A stretch of DNA of 10,920 nt. Origin: a virus. Its lineage: Duplodnaviria > Heunggongvirae > Uroviricota > Caudoviricetes. Below the pieces are notes generated by a model. The model was given only the letters and a program-made list of their open reading frames with translations. It was not told the origin of the DNA and ran no database searches. The stretch lies in the IMG/VR virus record IMGVR_UViG_2526164651_000001. One strand, 5' to 3'. Below, one piece after another: positions 394 to 10,920 of the stretch (position 1 is the stretch's first letter; the number at the start of each line of letters is the position of its first letter). Position numbers and translations under genes: made by a program.

Positions 394-468
<75 letters not shown>

Positions 469-471
469 ATA

Positions 472-547
<76 letters not shown>

Positions 548-549
548 GC

Positions 550-626
550 TGGCCCACCACCGAGGACTCGAACCTCGCACCGTCAACTTAGAAGGTTGAT
601 GCTCTATCCGGATGAGCTAGTGGTGG
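550..626 (-). tRNA. tRNA-Arg (anticodon UCU, decodes AGA)
   Basis: Reverse complement CCACCACTAGCTCATCCGGATAGAGCATCAACCTTCTAAGTTGACGGTGCGAGGTTCGAGTCCTCGGTGGTGGGCCA: perfect 7-bp acceptor stem (C1-G72), D-stem GCTC/GAGC with A20, anticodon stem TCAAC/GTTGA, loop CTTCTAA, T-stem CGAGG/CCTCG, encoded CCA. Does not match host argU as I recall it. Confidence 0.75.
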
Positions 627-627
627 T

Positions 628-704
628 TGGTGGCCCTTGCTGGACTTGAACCAGCGACCTGGCGATTATGAGTCGCTCGCTCTGACCAACTGAGCTAAAG
701 GGCC
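628..704 (-). tRNA. tRNA-Ile2-like (anticodon CAU, probably lysidine-modified, decodes AUA); elongator Met not excluded
   Basis: Reverse complement GGCCCTTTAGCTCAGTTGGTCAGAGCGAGCGACTCATAATCGCCAGGTCGCTGGTTCAAGTCCAGCAAGGGCCACCA: perfect acceptor stem with C4-G69 and C5-G68 (TilS determinants in E. coli tRNA-Ile2), anticodon loop CTCATAA, T-arm GCTGG/TTCAAGT/CCAGC as in ileX. Roughly 90% similar to host ileX by eye. Confidence 0.8.
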
Positions 705-1464: not shown

Positions 1465-2283
1465 TTAAGCAGCCATCTGATGATATTTTTCCCTGAAGGC
1501 TGCCAGGGAGATATTCCCCAGACGAGAGTGACGACGCTGACGATTGTAGAAAATCTCAATGTATTCCCGTATTACTGAGATGGCTTCATCCCGGTTATTA
1601 AAACGATAGTGGCTCAGGCTCTCATTTTTCAGCGTTCCCCAGAAGCTTTCCATCGGAGCGTTGTCGTAACAGTTACCTTTACGCGACATTGATGTTTTCA
1701 GACCAAACTGCTCCTGTATGACCCGGTAATCGTATGCGCAGTACTGTGAACCTCGATCAGAGTGGTGGATTAGCCCGGCAGGTGGGCGCTGGCTCCTGAG
1801 CGCCATAAACAGGGCTTTACCTGTCAGCTCTTTTGTCATGCGCTCTCCCATGGCGTAGCCGACAATTTCGCACGTATAAACATCTTTGATGCCAGCGAGG
1901 TACAACCATCCCTCCTGTGTGGCAACATACGTCAGGTCCGCCACCCAGACCTGATTTGGTGCTGTAGGAGCGAACGTCTGGTTCAGCAGATTTGGCGCAA
2001 CTGGCAGATTGTGGTTCGGGTTCGTAGTCGCTCTGAACTTGCGTTTCTGCTTACAGCGTAGCCTTAGCTCCTTACAAAGACGTGCCAGTCGGTCACGACC
2101 AACGATGATGCCATTCTCTGCCAGCTCCGTCTGGAGCCGCCGGGTTCCATATGTTTCGCGAGTGCGGATATGTGCCACCTTAATCTCCAGTTTTAGCCGC
2201 TCATCACTTTGTTTTCTGTCTGAGGGTTCATGCTGTACCCAGTTGTAATAACCGCTCCTGGATACACCAAATACCTGACACAT
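1465..2283 (-). CDS. IS600 transposase OrfB (DDE catalytic domain); made as an OrfAB fusion by -1 frameshift
   Basis: 272-aa ORF with IS3-family DDE motifs (WVADLTY ... HHSDRGSQY ... [11 protein letters not shown]). Its frame is open upstream to the A7 slippery run (plus 2364..2370, minus AAAAAAA within ILKKA of OrfA) and is -1 relative to OrfA. Confidence 0.85.
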   Translation of the reverse strand: MCQVFGVSRSGYYNWVQHEPSDRKQSDERLKLEIKVAHIRTRETYGTRRLQTELAENGIIVGRDRLARLCKELRLRCKQKRKFRATTNPNHNLPVAPNLLNQTFAPTAPNQVWVADLTYVATQEGWLYLAGIKDVYTCEIVGYAMGERMTKELTGKALFMALRSQRPPAGLIHHSDRGSQYCAYDYRVIQEQFGLKTSMSRKGNCYDNAPMESFWGTLKNESLSHYRFNNRDEAISVIREYIEIFYNRQRRHSRLGNISLAAFREKYHQMAA

Positions 2284-2318
2284 CGCTTCAATGGGAAATT
2301 GTTGTCGCCATTGTTCGA

Positions 2319-2621
2319 TTAACGCGTATTTTTCAGCGACTCCTGTGCAAAATACGCTGTTGCTTTTTTTAATATATCTCGCTCAAGGCGAGCTTCATTT
2401 AACGCCTTACGCAGTTGCAGAATTTCAGATTCCAGTTCAGCCACCGTGCGGGAACCAGGAGTACCGAGCCCTTTTCTGGCGGCGGTAACCCATTGTCCTA
2501 AAGTGCCTTCAGGAAGAGATAATCGGGAAGCGCCTTCACTGATCGAAAGTTGATTTTCAAGAACCGTTCTGACAGCTTCGGCTTTGAACTCTTTAGAGTA
2601 ACGTTGGGTTTTTCTGCTCAT
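2319..2621 (-). CDS. IS600 OrfA (helix-turn-helix / leucine-zipper transposase N-terminal protein)
   Basis: 100-aa ORF MSRKTQRYSKEFKAEAV...; ends just past the A7 frameshift site; typical IS3-family orfA/orfB arrangement. Confidence 0.85.
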   Translation of the reverse strand: MSRKTQRYSKEFKAEAVRTVLENQLSISEGASRLSLPEGTLGQWVTAARKGLGTPGSRTVAELESEILQLRKALNEARLERDILKKATAYFAQESLKNTR

Positions 2622-2736: not shown

Positions 2737-2900
2737 AACGATAACTCCGTACATTTGGAAATTATCGCCACCGACGACGCCAATCGAACTGGTGGCGAAC
2801 TGTGCAGGGTTGGCGTAACCGGGTACGGAAACCGGCGAGCCTTTCGGCTCCCCCACACAGCCCGCCATAAATCGCGAATGTGACTGTGCAAACGATATGA

Positions 2901-2920
2901 AAAAAGACGCGGGCGCGTCT
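2901..2920 (-). terminator. Candidate tR'-like intrinsic terminator
   Basis: Minus strand: hairpin AGACGCG-CC-CGCGTCT (plus 2905..2920) followed by a U5 tract (plus A-run 2901..2905). About 75 nt downstream of the candidate promoter. Confidence 0.4.
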
Positions 2921-2982
2921 CATATCGCTCCGTAAACATCCGGGACGCCAATCCCGACGCCAGATTTTGCTGGCGCGTGAGG

Positions 2983-3012
2983 AATATAGCCCCGGATAAC
3001 AGATTGAGTCAA
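2983..3012 (-). promoter_or_regulatory. Candidate late promoter (pR'-like) immediately downstream of the Q-like gene
   Basis: Minus strand: TTGACT (plus 3012..3007, overlapping the Q-like stop codon), 18-nt spacer, TATATT (plus 2988..2983). Position and short-transcript/terminator layout resemble lambdoid Q-pR'-tR' modules. Motif-based only. Confidence 0.4.
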
Positions 3013-4449: not shown

Positions 4450-4582
4450 CGTAGTTCTCCGCTGGCGCAGTAGAATGGGTGTTCAGCCCGTTATGTAGTA
4501 TACCAGAATTAATGCCAATACTAACAGGGTAATGCTGCCAACTTACTGATTTAGTGTATGATGGTGATTTTAAGGTGCTTGC

Positions 4583-4858
4583 GTGGCTTCCATTTCCATC
4601 AGATGTCCTTCCTGCTCCGCTACTGAAGGCGTGGTGCGTAACGGCAAAAGCACTGCCGGGCATCAGCGCTATCTCTGCTCTCATTGCCGTAAAACATGGC
4701 AACTACAGTTCACTTACACCGCCTCTCAGCCCGGTACGCACCAGAAAATCATTGATATGGCCATGAATGGCGTCGGATGTCGCGCCAGTGCACGCATTAT
4801 GGGCGTTGGCCTCAACACGGTTTTACGTCACTTAAAAAACTCAGGCCGCAGTCGGTAA
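4583..4858 (+). CDS. insA: IS1 InsA
   Basis: 91-aa [42 protein letters not shown]..., the canonical IS1 InsA sequence. Confidence 0.9.
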
Positions 4859-5280
4859 CCTCGCGCATACAACCGGGCAGTGATGTGATTGTCTGCGCTG
4901 AAATGGACGAACATTGGGGCTACGTCGGTGCTAAATCACGTCAGCGCTGGCTGTTTTACGCGTATGACAGGATACGGAGGACGGTTGTGGCGCACGTCTT
5001 CGGTGAACGCACTCTGGCCACACTGGAGCGTCTTCTGAGCCTGCTGTCGGCCTTTGAGGTCGTGGTATGGATGACGGATGGCTGTCCGCTGTATGAATCA
5101 CGCCTGAAGGGAAAGCTGCACGTTATCAGCAAGCGTTACACTCAGCGCATTGAGCGACATAATCTGAATCTGAGACAACATCTGGCAAGGCTGGGACGGA
5201 AGTCACTGTCGTTCTCAAAATCGGTGGAGCTGCATGACAAGGTCATCGGGCATTATCTGAACATAAAACACTATCAGTAA
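4777..5280 (+). CDS. insB: IS1 InsB reading frame (expressed as InsAB' transposase by -1 frameshift at the A6C motif)
   Basis: 167-aa ORF in the -1 frame relative to insA; canonical IS1 insB sequence ending ...HYLNIKHYQ. Confidence 0.85.
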
Positions 5281-5489
5281 GTTGGAGTCATTACCCGCAA
5301 TTCATCCAGCAGTTTATCATTTCCCATAATGTCACTTACCCTCATCGGTAAAAAAATTGCCTTTCGACCATTACGATACATTATTGATTTTGGGGTTTCA
5401 GGGAAGTAATCCATTTCGACTATAACTGACAGGTCATCACGACGTATGACTGCGTATTTGCTACTAAATAGTTTCTTTATTTTTTCCAC
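5274..5489 (-). pseudogene. Hypothetical small protein gene whose 3' end runs into IS1
   Basis: Best start is GTG at 5489 preceded by GGAGG (4-nt spacer), giving (M)EKIKKLFSSKYAVIRRDDLSVIVEMDYFPETPKSIMYRNGRKAIFLPMRVSDIMGNDKLLDEL... The last ~7 codons and the stop are IS1 sequence. Occupies the position of rem in the K-12 Qin layout, but sequence identity is unverified. Confidence 0.3.
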
Positions 5490-5673
5490 GATGCCTCCAG
5501 GTTTATAAGTACAAACGGTTATATCCACATAGAGACAAAAATATTAATCTGAAAAACATTTATTTCACGCCGTATATTTGATTGTTTAATGTGCAAGTAC
5601 AATGACTTTTATTTTTGTTGTGTATATAATCAAATATATGGTTATTTTTCACCCTGCGTATTCAGCACGCAAC

Positions 5674-5696
5674 AAAAAACCCGCCGAAGCGGGTTT
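5674..5696 (-). terminator. Rho-independent terminator downstream of hok
   Basis: AAACCCGC-CGAA-GCGGGTTT. On the minus strand the stem is followed by a U6 tract (plus A-run 5674..5679). About 70 nt downstream of the hok stop. Confidence 0.5.
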
Positions 5697-5763
5697 AGTG
5701 CGGGTGCGTTGAGGATGCCTGACACATGAGAGGTGGCGAGGGATTTCTCCCCCGCCTGGTCTC

Positions 5764-5919
5764 TTACTCCTCAGGTTCGTAAGCTGTGAAGACAGCGACC
5801 TCCGTCTGGCCGGTTCGGATTCGTACCTCGCAGAGGTCTTTCCTCGTTACCAGTGCCGTCACTATGACGGTTAAACAGATGACGATCAGGGCGATTAACA
5901 TCGCCTTTTGCTGCTTCAT
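5764..5919 (-). CDS. hok: Hok/Gef-family type I toxin (HokD/RelF-like), 51 aa
   Basis: MKQQKAMLIALIVICLTVIVTALVTRKDLCEVRIRTGQTEVAVFTAYEPEE. ATG at 5919 preceded by AAGGAG with a 9-nt spacer. The track ORF (70 aa) starts at an upstream in-frame ATG that lacks a ribosome-binding site. Confidence 0.85.
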   Translation of the reverse strand: MKQQKAMLIALIVICLTVIVTALVTRKDLCEVRIRTGQTEVAVFTAYEPEE

Positions 5920-6256
5920 AGCCTGCTTCTCCTTGCCTTTCGGCACGTAAGAGGCTAACCTACATTTGTGAGACATAGATTGGGCCTCAGATTAATGTTA
6001 AGCGTCTTGCAGGACGCGTAATGTTAACTGGGGCTTTTCTCTGTCTGCCTTACAGTGGCATGCCCGAGGCAGACAGCCTCAAGCACCCGCAGCAATCTTA
6101 CCGATACCGATAAGAAAACGCTATTTTTTATTGCCAGCACCTTCTATCCAGGCTAATTTATCTGCGTCAGAACGGCGCAATGCGCTCGCCTGAGATACGT
6201 TTACTTGCCATGGTAACAACAGGTAACGGCAATTGCTGTTTCTGTTTTGTTTCCTT

Positions 6257-6288
6257 CAAAAACCCCGGACCATCAATCCGGGGTTTTT
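6257..6288. terminator. Bidirectional intrinsic terminator
   Basis: AAAAA-CCCCGGA-CCATCAA-TCCGGGG-TTTTT: 7-bp GC stem with an A-run on one side and a T-run on the other. On the minus strand it begins 5 nt after the stop of the 27-aa ORF. Confidence 0.5.
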
Positions 6289-6293
6289 GTTTG

Positions 6294-6377
6294 TTAACCC
6301 CAACGGCAAATCGAATACACCACCATCGCCATCGCCATCGCAATTCCTACCGTGGTGAATGCCTCAGGCCAGGTCAT
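6294..6377 (-). CDS. 27-aa hydrophobic mini-protein (candidate membrane peptide)
   Basis: ATG at 6377 preceded by AGGAGGTG (5-nt spacer). MTWPEAFTTVGIAMAMAMVVYSICRWG, stop at 6296..6294, then the terminator. Start overlaps the upstream mini-ORF stop as ATGA. Below the ORF-track size cutoff; found by manual translation. Confidence 0.4.
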   Translation of the reverse strand: MTWPEAFTTVGIAMAMAMVVYSICRWG

Positions 6378-7963: not shown

Positions 7964-8018
7964 GGTAATGCTGCCAACTTACTGATTTAGTGTATGATGG
8001 TGATTTTAAGGTGCTTGC

Positions 8019-8613: not shown

Positions 8614-9432
8614 TTAAGCAGCCATCTGATGATATTTTTCCCTGAAGGCTGCCGGGGAGATATTCCCCAGACGAGAGTGACGACGCTGACGATTGTAGAA
8701 AATCTCAATGTATTCCCGTATTACTGAGATGGCTTCATCCCGGTTATTAAAACGATAGTGGCTCAGGCTCTCATTTTTCAGCGTTCCCCAGAAGCTTTCC
8801 ATCGGAGCATTGTCGTAACAGTTACCTTTACGCGACATTGATGTTTTCAGACCAAACTGCTCCTGTATGACCCGGTAATCGTATGCGCAGTACTGTGAAC
8901 CTCGATCAGAGTGGTGGATTAGCCCGGCAGGTGGGCGCTGGCTCCTGAGCGCCATAAACAGGGCTTTACCTGTCAGCTCTTTTGTCATGCGCTCTCCCAT
9001 GGCGTAGCCGACAATTTCGCACGTATAAACATCTTTGATGCCAGCGAGGTACAACCATCCCTCCTGTGTGGCAACATACGTCAGGTCCGCCACCCAGACC
9101 TGATTTGGTGCTGTAGGAGCGAACGTCTGGTTCAGCAGATTTGGCGCAACTGGCAGATTGTGGTTCGGGTTCGTAGTCGCTCTGAACTTGCGTTTCTGCT
9201 TACAGCGTAGCCTTAGCTCCTTACGAAGACGTGCCAGTCGGTCACGACCAACGATGATGCCATTCTCTGCCAGCTCCGTCTGGAGCCGCCGGGTTCCATA
9301 TGTTTCGCGAGTGCGGATATGTGCCACCTTAATCTCCAGTTTTAGCCGCTCATCACTTTGTTTTCTGTCTGAGGGTTCATGCTGTACCCAGTTGTAATAA
9401 CCGCTCCTGGATACACCAAATACCTGACACAT
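8614..9432 (-). CDS. IS600 transposase OrfB (copy 2)
   Basis: 272 aa; differs from copy 1 at two residues (C/R and L/P). Confidence 0.85.
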
Positions 9433-9467
9433 CGCTTCAATGGGAAATTGTTGTCGCCATTGTTCGA

Positions 9468-9770
9468 TTAACGCGTATTTTTCAGCGACTCCTGTGCAAA
9501 ATACGCTGTTGCTTTTTTTAATATATCTCGCTCAAGGCGAGCTTCATTTAACGCCTTACGCAGTTGCAGAATTTCAGATTCCAGTTCAGCCACCGTGCGG
9601 GAACCAGGAGTACCGAGCCCTTTTCTGGCGGCGGTAACCCATTGTCCTAAAGTGCCTTCAGGAAGAGATAATCGGGAAGCGCCTTCACTGATCGAAAGTT
9701 GATTTTCAAGAACCGTTCTGACAGCTTCGGCTTTGAACTCTTTAGAGTAACGTTGGGTTTTTCTGCTCAT
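9468..9770 (-). CDS. IS600 OrfA (copy 2)
   Basis: 100 aa, identical to copy 1; A7 frameshift run at plus 9513..9519. Confidence 0.85.
   Translation of the reverse strand: MSRKTQRYSKEFKAEAVRTVLENQLSISEGASRLSLPEGTLGQWVTAARKGLGTPGSRTVAELESEILQLRKALNEARLERDILKKATAYFAQESLKNTR

Positions 9771-10343: not shown

Positions 10344-10920
<577 letters not shown>

Follow-up and report, generated by a model that had tools for sequence, protein, structure and literature searches.

A hok/mok/sok toxin-antitoxin module from the nin region of a lambdoid prophage rich in IS elements

Described hok/sok systems and the extent of the module

The hokW, mokW and sokW genes are all annotated in the Stx2 phage 933W (AF125520), and the hokW/sokW locus of the Sakai prophage Sp5 has been demonstrated by experiment to be a type I toxin-antitoxin (TA) system (Takada et al. 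2021, PMC8621323). According to that work, HokW is toxic and is counteracted by sokW, sokW is lost after mitomycin C treatment, and the hokW/sokW locus doubles the release of Sp5 phage (PMC8621323). Expression of sokW was abolished by mutating a -10 hexamer homologous to the one described below, the primers YO-421/422 changing TAGGTTA to CCGGCTC on the hok strand (PMC8621323). Against this background we analyzed a viral sequence of 10,920 nucleotides (IMG/VR record IMGVR_UViG_2526164651_000001), referred to here in its full length as the window. Positions 5672..6100 very probably comprise a complete, sequence-intact hok/mok/sok type I TA module of the hokW/hokD subfamily, situated within the nin region of a lambdoid prophage rich in IS elements. 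Modules of this type are already known and very common, and nothing in this copy is unusual; the module was annotated in 933W in 1999 and examined experimentally in Sp5 in 2021, and is of small value as a discovery.

The closest described relative is the hokW/mokW/sokW locus of 933W, which shares 92.8% DNA identity with the window over ~400 bp, the same order of elements, and a 70-aa Mok in frame with a 51-aa Hok. In 933W/Sp5 a 71-nt Sok occupies the homologous position behind an identical -10 hexamer (TAACCT), and the tac, ucb and fbi boxes are likewise identical. The two loci differ at seven amino acids of Mok/Hok, with a Hok C-terminus of FTAYEPEE in the window and FVDYESEK in 933W, and at 7 of 24 nucleotides of the target of the Sok 5' tail. 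Moreover, the window has a canonical terminator directly 3' of fbi, where the 933W sequence diverges, and its module lies in the nin region, whereas that of 933W is found close to the right genome end. The hok/sok (parB) locus of plasmid R1 follows the same logic with the same elements, i.e. tac/fbi, ucb, dcb and mok coupling, and its Sok is likewise a cis-antisense RNA over the mok translation start (PMC9841398); our naming of ucb and dcb and the scheme of closed and open forms follow the description of R1 in that source. The R1 and window loci share their Pfam and Rfam families, and their Hok proteins are ~41% identical; HokW has been reported as 44% identical to R1 Hok (PMC8621323). The R1 locus is plasmid-borne, whereas the window copy is prophage-borne. 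In the K-12 hokC/mokC/sokC (gef) locus, mok is in frame with hok and tac is identical (GGGUGCUUGAGG), as in the window, and HokC is 82% identical to the window Hok. However, the sokC hairpin is shorter, and an IS186 sits 20 bp beyond the hokC stop codon, at the place expected for fbi; in the window fbi is intact.

The toxin gene itself is readily recognized. The hok CDS (5764..5919, minus strand) encodes 51 residues that match PF01848 (Hok/Gef) with an E-value of 3e-23 and 81.6 bits against a cutoff of 22, and PHROG 251 ('MokW-like host killing'). The protein is identical to E. coli K-12 HokD (RelF) at 51 of 51 positions, in agreement with the first-pass annotation, made from the sequence alone, which had described it as HokD/RelF-like. 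Its Shine-Dalgarno (SD) sequence, AGGAG, can be read at 5929..5933 (minus strand).

Upstream of the toxin gene, the RF01794 ('sok') covariance model matches 6088..5914 with 118.1 bits (gathering score 59) and an E-value of 5e-27, over model positions 1-157 of 157. Although this family is titled 'sok antitoxin', the matching strand is that of hok (5914..6088, minus strand) and the consensus finishes at the hok AUG; RF01794 is therefore effectively a model of the hok mRNA leader, and strand calls based on it are misleading. When 5640-6300 was compared with complete E. coli genomes by megablast, 4722 of 5426 were matched, with a common block of ~6096..5671 in most of the matches listed. The 162-nt leader by itself was found in 4279 of the 5426 genomes (about 79%), at 8690 places with a median of two and a maximum of eight per genome, and at none of these 8690 places was it annotated. 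By contrast, the flank at 6097..6300 was found in just 39 of the 5426 genomes, without annotation, and in the alignment with phage 933W the sequence upstream of ~6096 is missing. Membership of 6097..6256 in the leader was rejected given these counts (39 genomes, against 4279 for the leader) and the absence of this stretch from 933W. Because genome-wide conservation and the Rfam match both begin at ~6088-6096, the functional leader, i.e. the predicted hok 5' UTR, comprises ~169 nt (6088..5920), about half of the ~340 nt proposed at first.

By homology, the full-length hok mRNA would measure about 417 nt (5672..6088, minus strand) and run from tac to an intrinsic terminator, which a terminator scan places at 5677..5696 (minus strand; 8-bp stem with five GC pairs, followed by a T-run). 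The putative -10 element of the hok promoter, TAAGAT (6095..6100, minus strand), lies 6 nt before the GGGUGC at the predicted 5' end. Most of 102 unique related modules, collected from 80 IMG/VR loci and from genomes, feature a TAGAAT-like hexamer separated by six nucleotides from GGGTGC, and the TAAGAT seen here is a rarer, weaker version. No convincing -35 was found upstream of TAAGAT, and a generic sigma-70 promoter scan of the window called neither the hok nor the Sok promoter; the placement of both draws on homology, family-wide conservation and the published -10 mutagenesis in Sp5.

The mok frame and the hok mRNA switch

A 70-aa mok ORF (5764..5976, minus strand), 90% identical to MokW of 933W, begins at an ATG at 5976, 57 nt upstream of hok and in the same frame. 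This ATG had been recognized as in frame with hok, but the accompanying claim that it lacks a ribosome-binding site does not hold, because GAGG (5985..5988, minus strand) is located 8 nt upstream. Nor is an in-frame upstream ATG an oddity, since mokW and mokC are annotated in frame with hokW and hokC, respectively. The mok-type coupling frame that was expected but could not initially be placed is therefore that at 5976..5764, with its own SD sequence upstream and a frame that runs across the hok start. In the 102 unique related modules the mok ATG and the GAGG are essentially invariant, with an entropy of ~0 for the latter, and in 101 of them the ORF from the mok ATG extends to the hok start. 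The frame in which it does so differs. A spacing of 57 nt, giving 70 aa in frame with hok, is found in 88 of 102 modules; nine have a spacing of 56 nt, such that the ORF ends at a TGA overlapping the hok ATG; and three have a spacing of 58 nt and a 68-aa ORF out of frame with hok. These differences in frame argue that the conserved feature is translation into the hok start rather than the Mok peptide, and therefore favor coupling over a functional Mok peptide.

The leader and the 3' UTR feature the complement of pairing elements known from R1, all on the minus strand. The tac box, GGGUGCUUGAGG, occupies 6077..6088 and is followed by a 5' stem-loop, CUGUCUGCC...GGCAGACAG (6041..6076), that is present in the minimum free energy (MFE) fold and features covariation. 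The ucb or anti-SD box, AAAAGCCCC (6030..6038), is predicted to mask the mok SD in the full-length mRNA and to pair with tac in the truncated mRNA. For dcb, GCCUC (5951..5955), constrained folding gives an open form in which its partner is the mok SD region. Finally, fbi, CCUCAACGCACCC (5702..5714), is the predicted 3' partner of tac. An early approach to this long-range pairing, duplexfold of 160-nt upstream against 220-nt downstream segments, produced long meaningless duplexes and was dropped; a 14-nt tac probe was instead tested on the 3' UTR alongside shuffled sequences as controls.

The MFE fold of 6088..5672 features the tac-fbi pairing, with 12 bp and a 1-nt bulge at -21.5 kcal/mol, and the two boxes keep their relative position across four subfamilies. 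The fbi/tac-type pairing that had been suggested as a check on the folded minus-strand transcript is thus present. The same fold pairs ucb (6034..6030) with the mok SD, and contains both stem-loops noted at the outset, at 6076..6041 and 6017..6002, the former with four compensatory pairs. Shorter transcripts are predicted to behave differently. In a nascent RNA of 35-50 nt, tac pairs with 6069..6060 to form a metastable hairpin, and the first 60 nt fold into a tac-ucb stem. Forcing the tac-ucb pairing costs +13.2 kcal/mol in the presence of fbi, but just +0.4 kcal/mol in an mRNA shortened at its 3' end to 5716. In constrained folds of this open form, the mok SD pairs with dcb and closes the Sok-target hairpin (5988..5951). 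The unconstrained MFE fold of the 3'-trimmed mRNA does not produce the open form, and there the mok SD stays masked. The open form of the truncated mRNA is thus modeled as near-isoenergetic rather than favored, and it is on calculated energies that the locus appears to possess a refolding switch, in which tac and ucb pair alternatively and ucb masks the mok SD.

To place these predictions in a comparative context, 77 hok loci were fetched, with one genome per species. A tac-like box is present in hokD/W-, hokC-, hokB- and Enterobacter-type loci, and its best complement is found 46-56 nt after the stop codon in nearly all, with compensatory changes such as GGGUGCC/GGCACCC to GGGCGCC/GGCGCCC. 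The regular expression used for tac misses R1/plasmid-type loci (MKLPRS... Hok), which leaves 40-odd loci outside the covariation sets; this omission reflects a limit of the method and is no evidence that tac is absent there. In 26 distinct leaders, RNAalifold recovered the tac-ucb stem with a UA to CG compensation at one pair, and the hairpin at 6076..6041 has 88% of its cells paired, with four pairs changed on both sides. The closed-form leader structure as a whole has 80.4% of its cells paired in the 26-leader alignment, against 37-43% for slid controls, and features 14 pairs with both sides changed; none of 500 shuffles reached its covariation score. The earlier suggestion that the locus might be no more than a remnant, had it no conserved hok mRNA fold, therefore fails, because the leader structure is both conserved and covarying across these leaders. 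Moreover, across the 102 modules the hok synonymous sites, tac, ucb, fbi and the SD sequences all have near-zero entropy. Leaders identical to that of the window were found in E. coli ECMA0423 and Shigella flexneri SFBU1023.

The predicted Sok RNA and its variable target

On the opposite strand, homology points to a Sok promoter at 5933..5961 (plus strand), comprising a -35 TTGCCT (5933-5938), a 17-nt spacer and a -10 TAACCT (5956-5961). The -10 agrees with the consensus at just three of six positions and the promoter is a weak match to consensus; the complement of the -35 (GCAAGG) is invariant in the 26 leaders. The promoter overlaps the hok SD. An overlap of dcb with the Sok -10 region has been described for R1 (PMC9841398), and the same overlap is seen in the window. 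The predicted Sok RNA of ~71 nt (5968..6038, plus strand) is the positional equivalent of the annotated sokW of 933W (AF125520), from which its coordinates were transferred by alignment; K-12 sokC begins 8 nt inside mokC, which would give the same Sok start, 5968. The RNA is predicted to begin with an unpaired 5' tail of ~14 nt that complements the mok ATG/SD region, followed by a long terminator hairpin and a U-run, with a folding energy of -30.4 kcal/mol (z = -5.25). The promoter hexamers, the start and the terminator hairpin are all homologous to those of the annotated sokW and sokC. The first-pass annotation had anticipated an antisense Sok-like RNA of 60-70 nt on the plus strand between 5920 and 6080, and the gene predicted here by homology lies within that interval at close to that size.

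In hokD/W-type leaders the ucb/Sok hairpin is lengthened at its tip by 18-20 nt (CGCGUCCUGCAAGACGCU; ~6017..5998 in the window) that are missing from hokC-, hokB- and Enterobacter-type leaders. This stretch corresponds to the second of the two hairpins noted at first, and accounts for a Sok of ~71 nt here against the 57-59 nt annotated for sokB and sokC.

Within this otherwise constrained leader, one patch is hypervariable. At 5983..5969 (15 nt) we found at least 19 alleles among hokD/hokW-type modules that are otherwise ~95% identical, so that its diversity is nearly saturated. Of the 330 14-nt windows scored across the 102 modules, the one at the patch has the highest entropy (0.98; median 0.16). 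The patch covers the nucleotides that separate the mok SD from the ATG, together with mok codons 2-3, which is exactly the pairing target of the Sok 5' tail. Three copies of the module in S. flexneri SFBU1023 (loci L010, L012 and L019) have three different tails. It is conceivable, though we hold it rather doubtful, that the patch is a specificity determinant under diversifying selection that prevents Sok cross-protection between co-resident prophage copies; if so, each co-resident element would stay individually addictive. Alternatively, the patch may merely be the sole unconstrained stretch of a densely overlapped leader. Allele-specific searches for three tails found 752 places among 706 genomes for the first, 726 among 626 for the second and 577 among 536 for the third, which correspond to 46, 100 and 41 same-allele extra copies within genomes, respectively. 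For these three alleles there is no clear signal that genomes avoid shared Sok tails, since the duplicates roughly equal what random assortment would give, an estimate that uses a guessed copy-number distribution and a comparison confounded by prophage type.

Function, relation to K-12 hokD and prophage setting

Taken together with work on R1 and Sp5, from which the biochemical steps are drawn, the computed folds are consistent with the following cycle. A weak promoter would yield the ~417-nt hok mRNA, whose 5' tac box would be held in a local metastable hairpin while the transcript is nascent. In the complete transcript, the tac-fbi pairing, together with ucb lying over the mok SD, would render the mRNA inert. 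Slow 3' trimming would then take off fbi and allow tac to pair with ucb, such that the mok SD is freed into the target hairpin (5988..5951). As long as Sok is present, its 5' tail would bind over the mok start and block mok translation and, with it, the coupled translation of hok, and the Sok-mRNA duplex would be degraded. Once Sok decays, Mok and Hok would be translated, and the 51-aa Hok would damage the inner membrane. For the prophage, a putative role in lysis and phage release on induction, as shown for Sp5, or in prophage stabilization, is likely.

These roles presuppose an active locus, and intact sequence is no proof of activity, since chromosomal hokA, hokB and hokC are cited as giving neither post-segregational killing nor a response to rifampicin (in bioRxiv 10.1101/2025.08.07.668861). 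We therefore considered that the locus, though complete in sequence, is physiologically silent or non-addictive, a passive prophage passenger without a phenotype in its host. The inactivity of those chromosomal loci in killing is consistent with silence, as is the hok -10, in which TAAGAT is weaker than the family's TAGAAT. Two IS1 copies and IS3-family elements interrupt the prophage around it, and induction-linked roles may therefore be moot. However, all regulatory elements are intact and constrained, with near-zero entropy in the 102 modules, and the 93%-identical module of Sp5 is reported to function as a TA system and to promote phage release (PMC8621323). On balance, silence is a possibility to be taken seriously, albeit one that we consider improbable.

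Still less probable is that the main role of the module is neither maintenance nor aid to lysis but defense against superinfecting lytic phages by abortive infection. R1 hok/sok on a high-copy plasmid lowers the plating of T4 (cited in PMC8621323), but hok is reported not to be enriched near defense systems (bioRxiv 10.1101/2025.08.07.668861), the effect demonstrated for the closest relative is a twofold increase in the release of the phage's own progeny (PMC8621323), and the window holds nothing that bears on the question.

The identity of the toxin to HokD invites comparison with the relB-relE-hokD locus of the K-12 Qin prophage, in which the hok SD, CDS, 3' UTR with fbi, and terminator are ~98% identical to the window. 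In K-12, however, relE lies directly upstream of hokD, and homology to the window starts exactly at the hok SD, at 5933. Because all homology ends there, the K-12 hokD locus lacks tac, ucb, mok, the Sok promoter and the Sok RNA, all of which are found in the window. Conversely, when the K-12 proteins were searched against the whole window by tblastn, no RelE or RelB homolog was detected (best E-value 2.7); relB and relE are absent upstream of hok, as had been noted at first, and the arrangement is not that of the relBEF operon. Among the genome matches listed, K-12-type relBE-hokD loci align just from 5933 downward. The complete form is the norm, and K-12 hokD the exception, a 5'-truncated derivative of such modules. 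The idea that the window itself holds a regulatory-element-free remnant like K-12 hokD beside hairpin-rich DNA, to which a Hok identical to that of a locus without Sok, mok and tac might lend credence, is refuted by the match of RF01794 to the leader at full model length, by a tac, ucb, mok SD, mok ATG, dcb and Sok promoter that are present, conserved and covarying, and by the 4279 genomes that share the leader upstream of the point where K-12 homology stops. The first-pass annotation thus named the right family, but gave the leader too great a length and did not recognize elements that are all there. The practical value of a complete hok/mok/sok assignment is in annotation: RefSeq names such loci 'hokD' alone, without mok or Sok, and thereby invites confusion with the K-12 relBEF arrangement.

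The module is flanked by a DUF551 gene and by DUF1367, YbcO and Q-like (DUF1133) genes, which together identify the nin region of a lambdoid prophage, and a near-identical, uninterrupted prophage region is found in E. coli AVS0790 (98.6% identity). An IS1 at 4528..5295 is separated from the hok stop by 468 bp, close to the ~470 bp first estimated, and from the hok terminator by ~375 bp; the parallel that was drawn with K-12 hok loci is superficial, because this IS1 lies outside the unit, whose fbi and terminator are undisturbed. The ends of a second IS1 lie at 7964 and 9998; it is broken by an IS3-family element with orfA/orfB at 9770..8614, of which a further copy lies at 2621..1465, and a transposase fragment is found at 10352..10873. 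The IS load of the window is Shigella-like. Rfam matches at 2788..2989 and 397..704 (both minus strand) comprise C4 antisense RNA, isrK and the c4 a1/b1 targets, all beside the Q-like gene, and a cluster of four tRNA genes; C4/isrK matches and a tRNA cluster are typical of the region downstream of Q in lambdoid and Stx-type prophages.

Upstream of the module, an unannotated ORF of 27 hydrophobic residues (6377..6294, minus strand; MTWPEAFTTVGIAMAMAMVVYSICRWG) features a strong SD and an ATG that shares an ATGA with the stop codon of the preceding DUF551 gene, and is followed by a bidirectional terminator-like hairpin (6257..6289). It has no match in Pfam, PHROG or NCBIfam, and is kept with mostly conservative substitutions in 933W (L001, 1384-1467, unannotated), AVS0790, and loci L007, L012 and L030.

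Several short contigs carry hok loci of the kind found in E. coli and on enterobacterial plasmids, within assemblies labeled Veillonella parvula, Acinetobacter idrijaensis, Xanthomonas pisi, Streptomyces morookaense and Oscillibacter (loci L015, L024, L030, L036 and L037). L015 and L030 are 100% HokD-type and L024 is 96%, whereas L036 and L037 are R1-type at 43%; enterobacterial contamination of these five assemblies is the most likely explanation.

A last observation concerns the hok coding sequence. The tetranucleotide UACG is the A-to-I editing motif of TadA. In the window, hok codon 46 is UAC and is followed by G, so that the motif spans 5784..5781 (minus strand). Recoding of the hokD mRNA to Cys at position 46 has been reported (bioRxiv 10.1101/2025.08.07.668861).
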